From: a virus
Taxonomy: Duplodnaviria > Heunggongvirae > Uroviricota > Caudoviricetes
Length of the DNA stretch: 11,516 bases
Virus record (IMG/VR): IMGVR_UViG_2585427755_000012
Strand: one strand, 5' to 3'
The notes below the pieces were generated by a model. That model made no database searches and was not told where the DNA came from. It saw only the letters and a program-made list of their open reading frames with translations. Positions 9,602 to 11,516 of the stretch are shown in pieces. Numbering within the stretch: the stretch's first letter is position 1; each line of letters begins with the position of its first letter. The position numbers and the translations under genes are program-made.

Positions 9602-10099
9602 CTACATCTGATATTTTCTATCTCTTAAAGATTCATAAATCCGTTGACAAGTCACTCCTGCGATATAGCGTTTGTCAGCAATTTCAGCATAAAGCTGAGC
9701 TTCTGCTGCAATATCTCCGAGCATGTTGGTGAGCATTCCTTCGGCGGCTTTGGTTGTTTTGCCTCTGACGGCAGCGGCAAGATTTGCGGTATGCTGCGCT
9801 GCGTCAAGGCGTATGGCATATTTTGTTGCTTCGGCACGCAGCTGGTTAACACTATCAGACAGATCAGCAGCCCTGGCAGAAATTTCAGCGGCTTTCTGTT
9901 GTGCATCTTTAACAGCCTCATCTCGGGATATAGTTCGCCCCTGTTCAATTATTCGAGCAGCAAATTGGACATTTACCTCTTGAGATAATTCGGCAGCATC
10001 ACGCTCCGCCCATTTTTTTTGCCATCCTCTGTCGCTCCAGATATTACCTACGACAAATCCTACCAACACGAGCAAAATCACCGTGAATATCTGATTCAC
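9602..10099 (-). CDS. rzpQ: Rz-like i-spanin (inner-membrane spanin subunit), 165 aa
   Basis: N-terminal TM segment ([15 protein letters not shown]) followed by a long Ala/Gln/Glu-rich coiled-coil-like periplasmic domain. GTG start overlaps the endolysin stop (GTGA) with GGGGGA SD 7 nt upstream. Confidence 0.85.
9652..9906 (-). CDS. rzoQ: Rz1-like o-spanin (outer-membrane lipoprotein) embedded in the +1 frame of Rz
   Basis: Signal peptide with lipobox (LIVLTSC) then a Pro-rich mature region, entirely within the Rz gene. Start tentatively ATG 9906 (GAGG 9 nt upstream); ATG 9921 is an alternative. Confidence 0.6.
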
Positions 10100-10629
10100 T
10101 GTTCTATCCCCCAGCAGGTTAATGCACTCTCCTGGTCACGACGAATAACCTGACCGTAACAATTATTTGAACGAATGCGGCAATCACGTCCACCGTCCTT
10201 TATCCACCAGCGAATCGCCTCGCATGCGCCTTTACGATCACCGGCATTAAGCCGCTTATAAAACGTCGACGGAAAACACTTACCAGGGCCAATGTTATAG
10301 GGACAGAATGACGCGATACCGGCTTTCTGTGGCTCGGTCAGTGGAACTTTTATATTGCGCTCCACCCATGCCAGCGCCTTATCACGTTCAATGGCGTTAA
10401 CCAGGTCGCATTTTTCCTTCGACAGTTTCATACCGGGAAAAACGGGTTTTCCATCCACCACCGTGGCCCCCCGACAGATGGTCCATATGCCGGAACCATC
10501 GCGGTATGCCGCTGTGTGGTTACCTTCTTTTTCGTCCAGAAACTGGTCGAGTATTTGAGGAGCAGACGCGCCTGCAGCAATCAGCGCCAGAACGGCTGCT
10601 GACAGGCCGTATTTGATATTAGCATTCAT
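10096..10629 (-). CDS. rrrQ: Phage lysozyme (T4-lysozyme-like fold) with N-terminal SAR (signal-anchor-release) domain, phage 21 R-type, 177 aa
   Basis: N-terminal weakly hydrophobic Gly/Ala-rich segment ([17 protein letters not shown]) followed by an E...D...T catalytic-triad region ([20 protein letters not shown]). No recognisable SD upstream of the ATG at 10629. Confidence 0.9.
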
Positions 10630-10756
10630 GGATATTTATCAGGATTTATCAGTTTCTAATCTCTAGATATGTTAAGCACTCAGCCCGTCAGTGGTGGATA
10701 CTGGCGTGTGTAATAAAGGGGGGATGGCTGATTACCTCTGATAAGGGAATGTAACT

Positions 10757-11053
10757 ATGAACGGTATAGATCCATTCAAACCAATCAGTAAGCAACTTGA
10801 TGTGGTATTACCACAACTGACAAAACACAACGACCTTCTGGATAAAGTGTTGCCTTTTTATATTGCTGTTACCGCAAAATTATCAGGTAAAACTCGAGAA
10901 GAGGTTCTCAAATATAACATGCTGGCTTTAGAAACAATTTTTGGCTCAGAAAAAGCGGGAAAATCACCCAAAGAGCTGGCAGAATCTCAATTTGCTTATA
11001 TGACAAATATAAGAGTATCCGAAATCTTTGATAAGCTACCAGACATTGAATAA
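10757..11053 (+). CDS. Hypothetical protein (98 aa) on the strand opposite to the lysis genes, between holin and endolysin
   Basis: ATG 10757 with AAGGGAA SD 7 nt upstream, in-frame stop 5 codons upstream, TAA at 11051-11053 followed directly by a strong intrinsic terminator. Possibly the locus annotated ydfR in K-12; uncertain. Confidence 0.6.
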   Translation: MNGIDPFKPISKQLDVVLPQLTKHNDLLDKVLPFYIAVTAKLSGKTREEVLKYNMLALETIFGSEKAGKSPKELAESQFAYMTNIRVSEIFDKLPDIE

Positions 11054-11058
11054 TTTCT

Positions 11059-11088
11059 AAGCGGCAGTAATGCCGCTTTATATTTTTT
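11059..11088 (+). terminator. Rho-independent terminator (8-bp perfect stem aagcggca/tgccgctt, GTAA loop, T-rich tail)
   Basis: aagcggca (11059-11066), loop gtaa, tgccgctt (11071-11078), then tatatttttt. The minus-strand 72-aa ORF stop (11080-11078) lies inside the hairpin. Confidence 0.65.
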
Positions 11089-11296
11089 CAGCCAAATCTC
11101 TCAAGAACTGTTTGGCATGTTTTACCGCAGTAACTTCATAATAATCCAAACCAGCTCCTTCAAGTCGCTCAAGGTTGATGTTCAGATCAAAAATTTCACC
11201 GGCAAAACGTTCTTTGTCCTGTAACGTTAAGATTACCGTAACTTTATTCTCAAAATTGCGGGTCCCTTTCACAATCAGTTCATAGTTTTTAGTCAT
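11078..11296 (-). CDS. Hypothetical protein (72 aa), translationally coupled to the upstream pinholin gene
   Basis: ATG 11296 with GAGGAG SD overlapping the holin stop (TAA 11303-11301). No recognisable family; no TM segment apparent. Confidence 0.55.
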   Translation of the reverse strand: MTKNYELIVKGTRNFENKVTVILTLQDKERFAGEIFDLNINLERLEGAGLDYYEVTAVKHAKQFLRDLAEKI

Positions 11297-11300
11297 TGTC

Positions 11301-11516
11301 TTACTCTCCTCTCGCAGCCTTACGCCTGTCTTCTTTAATCTTGAAATAAAGGTTTGTCAGATACGTCAGCATGCCAAATACCAGACTACCCAATACACCT
11401 ATTGCCGCCCACTGTGAGGGTGTGACTTTATCGAGCAACTGTAAAAACCAGTAGCCAGCACTGCCTGCAGAGGTGCTGTAGGCGATGCCCGTTGTTAACT
11501 TATCCATGGATTTCAT
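11301..11516 (-). CDS. essQ: Class II holin / pinholin of the phage 21 S family (71 aa) with dual-start motif
   Basis: [71 protein letters not shown] closely resembles recalled S21. Two TM segments; Met1 and Met4 correspond to the antiholin and holin starts. Start codon sits at the window edge, so the RBS is not visible. Confidence 0.9.

Follow-up and report, generated by a model that had tools for sequence, protein, structure and literature searches.

Why should the holin gene and the endolysin gene of one phage lysis cassette stand 671 bp apart? The question is raised by an 11,516-nt stretch of viral DNA (IMG/VR record IMGVR_UViG_2585427755_000012, Caudoviricetes; the whole stretch that was analysed is called the window below). 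In this window the S gene, for a pinholin, and the R gene, for an endolysin, are separated by two small open reading frames (ORFs), one of 72 amino acids (aa) read with the lysis genes and one of 98 aa, here called X98, read against them. A sequence-only reading of the same DNA had taken both ORFs as uncharacterised insertions that might uncouple endolysin expression from holin expression. Comparison with related cassettes leads to another answer: the locus is probably an ordinary ydfR-containing cassette that has acquired a mobile, moron-like module of two genes with low guanine-plus-cytosine (GC) content, and the module is better described as cargo than as a switch of lysis timing. The ORFs, the terminator hairpin, the endolysin start without a Shine-Dalgarno (SD) sequence and the 9-nt tandem repeat were all found again at the same coordinates (Table 1).

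Table 1. Features of the lysis cassette and of the two-gene module (positions in the window)
Feature	Position	Strand	Basis
S, S21-type pinholin, essD/essQ-like, 71 aa, MKSM dual start	11516..11301	-	PF04971, E 2e-34
Short-form YdfR, DUF1327 N-domain only, 72 aa	11296..11078	-	PF07041
X98, 98 aa, phrog_25324, predicted cytoplasmic four-helix protein	10757..11053	+	phrog_25324, E 7e-61
Intrinsic terminator of X98, 8-bp GC-rich stem AAGCGGCA/TGCCGCTT, then TATATTTTTT	11059..11088 (hairpin 11059-11078)	+	terminator scan
Structured 5' leader of X98	10680..10731	+	RNAalifold, pair counts
Sigma-70-like antisense promoter candidate, -35 TTATCA (10646-10651), 16-nt spacer, -10 TATGTT (10668-10673)	10646..10673	+	comparison of leaders
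Tandem ATTTATCAG repeat	10634-10642 and 10644-10652	+	two exact occurrences in whole window
Segment in place of the 3' half of ydfR and of its junction with R, relative to mEp460-type cassettes	10646..11135		blastn breakpoints against mEp460, Tritos and 2H10
Relic of long-form ydfR 3' end, CCA CCA CTG ACG GGC TGA (PPLTG-stop)	10697..10680	-	alignments with BP-4795, YYZ-2008 and 2H10
R, predicted signal-anchor-release (SAR)-type endolysin, rrrQ-like, 177 aa	10629..10096	-	PF00959; N-terminus, E35/D44/T50
Rz i-spanin (DUF2514), GTG start overlapping R stop	10099..9602	-	PF10721, E 4e-38; K-12 rzpQ/rzoQ layout
Rz1 lipoprotein, embedded in Rz	9906..9652	-	LTSC lipobox

A gene between S and R, which the sequence-only reading regarded as unusual, is normal in this type of cassette. 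Among 80 IMG/VR loci with DUF1327, the family of YdfR, R lies downstream of the DUF1327 gene in all 80, and S lies upstream in 78, the other two loci ending before that point. The protein is 103 aa long with a stop codon overlapping the R ATG (Qin type) in 40 loci, and one further 103-aa locus has R interrupted by an insertion sequence (IS) element. The remaining types are 114 aa with a gap to R of 343 bp (20 loci), 116 aa with 63 bp (6 loci), 104 aa with 55 bp (2 loci), 183 aa with ~320 bp (6 loci, one of them frameshifted to 154 aa with a 409-bp gap) and 72 aa with 448 bp (5 loci). Of the phage records, 100 encode the DUF1327 N-domain and 438 an S21-type holin; those with DUF1327 include mEp460, Tritos, BP-4795, YYZ-2008, H-19B and many Stx1a and Stx2c phages, and wherever such records were inspected, as in K-12 Qin, the gene lies between S and R. 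The S-R distance in the window is typical of this ydfR-containing subgroup, unlike the immediate S-R succession of the phage 21-type system. YdfR between S and R is a standard layout in a large lambdoid group, and annotators should not read a disruption into it.

The 72-aa ORF is no insertion but YdfR/DUF1327, which is regularly present as the third gene in S21 cassettes of the Qin/mEp460/BP-4795 type. A profile search places it in PF07041 at 92.3 bits (gathering cut-off 25; E 2e-26), and its position, directly after the S21-type holin and ahead of the endolysin, is that of YdfR. It is 58% identical to residues 1-72 of K-12 YdfR. The ATG lies 4 nt past the S stop, with the SD GAGGAGAG inside the 3' end of S. 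The match spans profile positions 1-72 of 93, short of the full length of typical proteins (103-116 aa), and the protein terminates at the end of the DUF1327 N-domain. It matches five PHROG families that differ in length, because the N-domain is constant and all beyond about residue 70 is variable. AlphaFold2 (AF2) predicts three strands and a long C-terminal helix (mean predicted local distance difference test score, pLDDT, 83), and the ratio of nonsynonymous to synonymous substitution rates (dN/dS) is 0.17. Since proteins of exactly 72 aa occur in five diverged lineages, the 72-aa form is a recurrent native short form and no accident of truncation. A frameshifted variant of the gene, 99 aa long (P0024), reads through the terminator region (...LAEKYKAALLPLRNYS...) and was seen in short contigs only.

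What such a protein may do is indicated by work on K-12 YdfR. In a two-hybrid study of 2026, YdfR residues 1-72 were recovered three times as an RNase G (Rng) / RNase E N-terminal half (Rne-NTD) interactor, and Strep-YdfR co-purified Rne(1-598) and RNase-sensitive nucleic acid/RNA; an effect of YdfR on RNase E activity was not demonstrated (PMC13232886). Because binding was mapped to residues 1-72, the natural 72-aa form is a ready-made minimal domain. By homology, the 72-aa protein of the window would bind RNase E at its catalytic N-terminal half and might bind RNA as well, and it may be a late accessory protein whose target is RNase E or RNA. Beyond this study, no paper on genes between S and R was found in the literature.

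X98 had been proposed to be a moron, and this part of the proposal is supported. The gene is absent from most related cassettes, its patchy presence has sharp, mapped breakpoints, and it carries its own SD (AAGGGA, 8 nt 5' of the ATG), its own terminator, and a conserved promoter-like region and leader. Its base composition is deviant, with a GC content of 36% for X98 and 38% for the replaced segment, against 47% for S and 51.5% for R. The terminator sits between the two convergent stop codons, the scan calls it on the + strand only, and a hairpin at this position is conserved in all X98 loci. The coding sequence is under strong purifying selection: dN/dS between X98 and a Cronobacter copy with 85% identity is 0.08, and comparison with the more distant copies in tail regions shows saturation at synonymous sites. 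Both ORFs, the 72-aa one included, evolve as genes. Four helices are predicted (AF2, pLDDT 85). Homologues form 16 clusters and come from Enterobacteriaceae only, and an exhaustive HMMER search with the X98 profile over 1.84 billion representatives returned six matches, one of which, a plant repeat protein, was judged spurious. The match to P0023, a eukaryotic-looking protein of 1077 aa, is weak (E 6e-5), falls on four repeats (LPAYLAVSSNTSGST...) and was judged spurious. X98 is encoded by one of 50,697 phage records, that of Escherichia phage Evi (LR597642), which is also the sole phage record with the full arrangement.

The breakpoints reach beyond X98. Homology to mEp460 stops at about codon 54 of ydfR and resumes 17 nt before the R start. 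In alignment with the S21-type cassettes of mEp460, Tritos and 2H10, a kind of check that the sequence-only reading had proposed, the 3' half of ydfR and its junction with R are replaced; ydfR as such is a standard gene of the cassette. One allele of long-form ydfR encodes the same residues as the window protein up to position 47, and a relic of a long-form ydfR 3' end is found beside R; it compares with the ...KTPPLA-stop end of BP-4795 YdfR and overlaps the 5' arm of the X98 leader. Together, the breakpoints, the shared first 47 residues and the relic fit a module that came in by recombination within the part of ydfR for the DUF1327 N-domain. The same 611-bp module, with 79% identity, stands in Cronobacter phages after a different lysis cassette, and the 72-aa/X98 pair, judged by its distribution, is a mobile unit.

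The following course of events is proposed. A low-GC module of two genes has taken the place of the second half of ydfR together with its junction to R (window 11135..10646), most likely by homologous recombination in the DUF1327 N-domain, and a relic of the old ydfR 3' end was left beside R. One module gene would specify a DUF1327 protein that ends at residue 72, is read with the late operon in translational coupling to S, and is made only with the late genes. The other would be the X98 unit, in which a sigma-70-like promoter is followed by a 5' stem-loop leader, by an SD with the gene for the four-helix protein, and by an intrinsic terminator; it may be transcribed on its own, for example from a repressed or cryptic prophage, as are lambda bor and lom. 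S and R would stay on one Q-antiterminated late transcript, with R using the SD-less leader of its relatives.

X98 is constantly accompanied. All of its homologues that were examined face a convergent small gene of the phage late strand, in nine genomic contexts of enterobacterial phages. One kind of partner is a 72-aa DUF1327 protein, with 32-66% identity to that of the window. It lies between S21 and R in the window and in Evi; in Cronobacter, past a different lysis cassette and ahead of KilA-N and terminase; after tail gene I (loci L230/L231); between hicAB and a holin (L232/L233); and between Q and a lambda-type holin (L234). The other kind, of 93-95 aa and without a Pfam match, lies between I and J in Serratia (L005), between the tape measure gene and M (L009 and L010), between M and L (L226), and immediately upstream of a phage 21-like S-R-Rz cassette (L228). 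Both partner families have a similar C-terminal helix motif. Homology of the two families was considered but is not demonstrated, as BLASTP aligned the C-terminal helix only (E 0.004, one comparison) and hhalign gave probabilities of 0.6% and 3.8%. The strict pairing suggests that each product acts on the other or that they have a target in common, and we infer that X98 may be an independently expressed cargo protein linked in function to the 72-aa protein. Two neighbours of the module were also noted: in L233 (3714-4355, +) a hicA/hicB toxin-antitoxin pair directly beside the DUF1327-72/X98 module, upstream of a holin, and in L226 (4029-4241, -) a 70-aa ORF near the X98 module, between the tape measure gene and M, that resembles DUF1327 (strands, then a helix ending ...AKKQLKQLIAGF) and has no Pfam match.

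About 130 nt on the 5' side of X98 are conserved in all contexts. In 11 of 11 diverged leaders, a TAnnnT hexamer, with T, A and the final T kept, precedes by exactly 7 nt the invariant CAGCCC with which the leader helix opens; this hexamer is the -10 element of the promoter candidate. The leader itself consists of an invariant outer helix, UCAGCC (10680-10685) with GGCUGA (10726-10731), and an inner hairpin of 8 bp (10686-10693 paired with 10699-10706), in which six of the eight pairs show compensatory changes. Over the 11 leaders 95.5% of cells are paired, as compared to 20-43% in slid controls, and none of 500 shuffles reached the observed pairing or covariation. The minimum free energy structure of the single sequence is the same structure. 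The RNA would be that of the X98 strand, since one-sided changes in the leader stay paired (as G.U) only if the + strand is read. A search of window positions 9400-11516 with Rfam covariance models gave no match at E up to 1. A covariance model built on the leader matched X98 loci only, plus one marginal locus of a second antisense gene, type B (E 0.41), and the complete leader appears to be specific to X98. A scan of the genome contigs with a degenerate hairpin pattern gave chance matches only, in GC-rich genomes. Beside the leader, a small CCUC/GGGA helix may mask the X98 SD.

The promoter-proximal part of this region (TATCAGG ... CCTGG.TATGTT) is shared more widely. It also precedes the genes of types B and C, and it is present in cassettes without an antisense gene, such as those of BP-4795 and the 116-aa type. 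An antisense gene of one of the three types occurs in 31 of the 80 IMG/VR loci: the long gaps of other cassette types hold convergent ORFs in the same slot, of 86/88 aa (phrog_2572) and 90 aa (phrog_2411). The three cargo proteins have no mutual similarity by BLASTP, and searches of PADLOC, Pfam and NCBIfam gave no match for the partner proteins or for the type B and type C cargos. The slot just 5' of the endolysin is a hotspot: a single conserved region, a candidate antisense promoter, is used there by three or more small genes that are unrelated to each other (phrog_25324, phrog_2572 and phrog_2411). Part of these genes are unannotated in deposited phage genomes. The phrog_2572/phrog_2411 ORFs of L004 (3220-3486, -), L020 (2811-3083, -) and L021 (3000-3260, -) overlap the 3' end of long-form ydfR, and in phage 2H10 the phrog_2572 ORF carries no annotation. 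Promoter-like sequence pointing into ydfR was seen at window 10630-10673, L011 2850-2895 and L030 ~2870-2915, including the cargo-less cassettes of BP-4795, YYZ-2008 and the 116-aa type; cargo-less leaders could yield antisense RNA against the ydfR 3' end. A literature search found no paper on antisense transcription in this cassette.

Read on the lysis strand, the promoter region is the leader of R. Directly 5' of R stands CTGATAAATATCCATG, which contains no purine-rich SD. The proximal copy of the tandem repeat belongs to the conserved TATCAGG box / R leader, and the distal copy carries the -35 hexamer. Two copies are more than chance would supply (expectation 0.17; as many were seen in 4 of 200 shuffles). 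Cassettes without X98 have the repeat in a degenerate form (C/TCGATAAAT/C-C-CTGATAAAT). The absent SD and the repeat, which had been tied to the insertion, are family features and not its products, because the same R leader occurs in cassettes without X98. Each of the three frames is closed by a stop codon that overlaps the R ATG or lies no more than 25 nt upstream of it (10630-10655, -; CTGATAAATCCTGATAAATATCCATGA); these stops may permit termination-reinitiation from any upstream reading frame.

Could the module nonetheless separate the expression of R from that of S? According to this explanation, the hairpin or the antisense unit breaks or interferes with the late transcript, and the endolysin is expressed separately, for example from its own promoter. 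A stable hairpin does separate the 72-aa gene from R; the R start lacks an SD and is 448 nt away from the nearest upstream co-directional stop; and convergent transcription from the X98 promoter could reduce read-through into R. However, the T-tract follows the hairpin on the + strand only. Late transcription in lambdoid phages is Q-antiterminated, and a Q gene is present upstream of the lysis cassette in a locus 100% identical to this one. The SD-less leader is the same in the insert-free cassettes of BP-4795, the 116-aa type and mEp460, and Evi, an isolated coliphage, has the same layout. A separate R promoter was sought and rejected: one weak promoter-like site on the - strand was found (11034..11006, within the region antisense to X98), against a chance expectation of 3.8. 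Uncoupling of S and R, as the sequence-only reading had suggested, is therefore unlikely. With S and R on one late transcript, and with an R leader like that of its relatives, the module would be cargo without a role in lysis timing.

Another explanation starts from the pairing. X98, made in the lysogen, and its lytic-only late partner could form a functional two-component system, an effector/antidote pair that might, for example, give the prophage a self-immune defence or guard an RNase E-binding late protein. In favour of this are the presence of a partner in every X98 lineage examined, the constant opposite orientation of the two genes, the fixed 72-aa length of the DUF1327 partner in five lineages at 32-66% identity, and the correspondence of that length to the RNase E-binding part of YdfR (PMC13232886). 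Yet no component gave a match to such a system in PADLOC, Pfam or NCBIfam, the partner families are interchangeable among similar X98 sequences although they are not detectably homologous, and both the X98-partner interaction and a phenotype are conjecture. In its full form this proposal holds that X98 and its partner are an undescribed mobile two-component system of enterobacterial temperate phages. The 72-aa DUF1327 protein would be a late protein that binds RNase E and RNA; X98, under its own promoter and a new structured leader, would antagonise or guard it, or would be a defence effector against which self-immunity is expressed late. The promoter in the endolysin leader would then be a general antisense docking site for such cargos. 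We regard this proposal as speculative, and improbable as matters stand. Simple decay of a cryptic prophage has still less in its favour and is very improbable. On this view the 72-aa ORF is what remains of ydfR as a truncated pseudogene, and the 98-aa ORF arose by chance in junk DNA that was inserted; it can appeal to the defective state of the Qin-like prophage, with its truncated terminase and tail genes, to a Pfam match that covers 72 of 93 profile positions only, and to IS3 insertions nearby in some strains. It is already contradicted by the comparative data: the same 72-aa/98-aa pair in the isolated phage Evi, the recurrence of the 72-aa length, the purifying selection with saturated synonymous sites among tail copies, and the conserved leader and terminator.

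Several points weigh against the preferred reading of an ordinary cassette with a mobile cargo module. The candidate promoter has a weak -35, shows 8 of 12 consensus matches and lies below the scan threshold. The folding energy of the leader is not unusual (z = 0.26); the support for the leader comes from covariation among 11 related sequences, and expression of both strands is a prediction. Because the partner families have no significant profile similarity, their pairing with X98 could reflect the mechanics of insertion and not a shared function. R starts here with neither an SD nor the ATGA overlap of the Qin type. On the side of function, binding of RNase E by the window protein is extrapolated from a K-12 YdfR that is 58% identical, and YdfR overproduction altered few transcripts (PMC13232886). 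X98 has no match in Pfam, NCBIfam or PADLOC, PHROGs gives a family of unknown function only, and Foldseek found no match below E = 1 in PDB and BFVD.

As to whether the S / 72-aa / 98-aa / R order is the conserved architecture of a known phage family with functions assigned to both ORFs, the first half proved correct, in that the architecture is conserved and recurrent, but an experimental function is assigned for YdfR only. The split that drew attention to this locus is largely ordinary, and the cassette is intact. The value of the locus rests instead on the strict pairing, on a shared putative antisense promoter/endolysin leader that hosts three cargo genes, and on the covarying leader; the module also offers a concrete handle on the role of YdfR during phage development.

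The lysis cassette of the window belongs to a cryptic prophage of the Qin kind that is inserted at ydfJ, and its genes follow the order S21 pinholin, YdfR, SAR endolysin and Rz/Rz1. A Qin-like element adjoining ydfJ matches the whole window at 100% identity. This element is defective, with a truncated terminase fused to tail remnants, and it also carries pinQ, cspI, ynfQ, ynfN and gnsB. The 1.5-kb region with S, the module and R is 100% identical in ~50 complete E. coli genomes, in which S is annotated essD; at least 80% of it is covered in 59 of 5426 E. coli genomes, and Evi, a coliphage isolated from infant faeces, is 96% identical to it. In keeping with the phage 21-type system, the holin belongs to the S21 family of class II holins and has a dual start, and R has a predicted N-terminal SAR domain, with an Ala/Gly-rich N-terminus, and an E35-D44-T50 arrangement that, read from the sequence, fits the E-8-D-5-T catalytic spacing. 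The rest of the window (1-9300; compare locus L235) is a defective Qin-like prophage at ydfJ, with a truncated ydfJ, ynfT, ydfK, pinQ, a tail fibre assembly gene, a tail-tip fragment that is frameshifted and abuts a truncated gene for the large terminase, and DUF1441, gnsB, ynfN, ynfQ and cspI. IS3-family insertions were found in L001 (7418-9176, in Rz, strain 13P460A) and in L036 (2809-4122, in R, an IMG/VR contig), in cassettes otherwise intact. Some copies of the cassette are undergoing decay, since these insertions interrupt Rz or R.

Among known systems, the closest relatives of the cassette are those of K-12 Qin (essQ-ydfR-rrrQ-rzpQ/rzoQ), mEp460, Tritos, BP-4795 and YYZ-2008, which have the same gene order, the same families and the same SD-less R start region. 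Qin-type cassettes even share the chromosomal neighbourhood of the window (cspI, ynfQ, ynfN, gnsB, ydfJ). In Qin and Tritos, however, ydfR is 103 aa long and its stop overlaps the R ATG (ATGA), whereas the ydfR of the window stops at 72 aa and is followed by 448 bp with an antisense gene before R. The S21/R21/Rz21 genes of phage 21 agree with those of the window in the Pfam family and dual start of the holin, in the E-D-T spacing of the SAR-type lysozyme and in the embedded spanin pair. In the phage 21-type locus L228, S overlaps R directly, and the X98 module lies upstream of S and not between S and R as in the window. Other RNase E binders, phiKZ Dip, RapZ and RraA, have no sequence relationship to YdfR; Dip binds the scaffold region of RNase E. 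As a late-operon addition, X98 resembles lambda bor (antisense, just after Rz) and lom: each is an extra low-GC gene of patchy presence with a terminator and a promoter-like region. Unlike bor and lom, X98 travels with a late-strand gene and has a covarying 5' leader, and its promoter-like region doubles as the endolysin leader and serves three alternative cargo genes. The nearest counterpart of the whole locus is phage Evi, in which the S / 72-aa / 98-aa / R / Rz layout is identical, at 96% identity, in a complete isolated phage as compared to the defective chromosomal element of the window.

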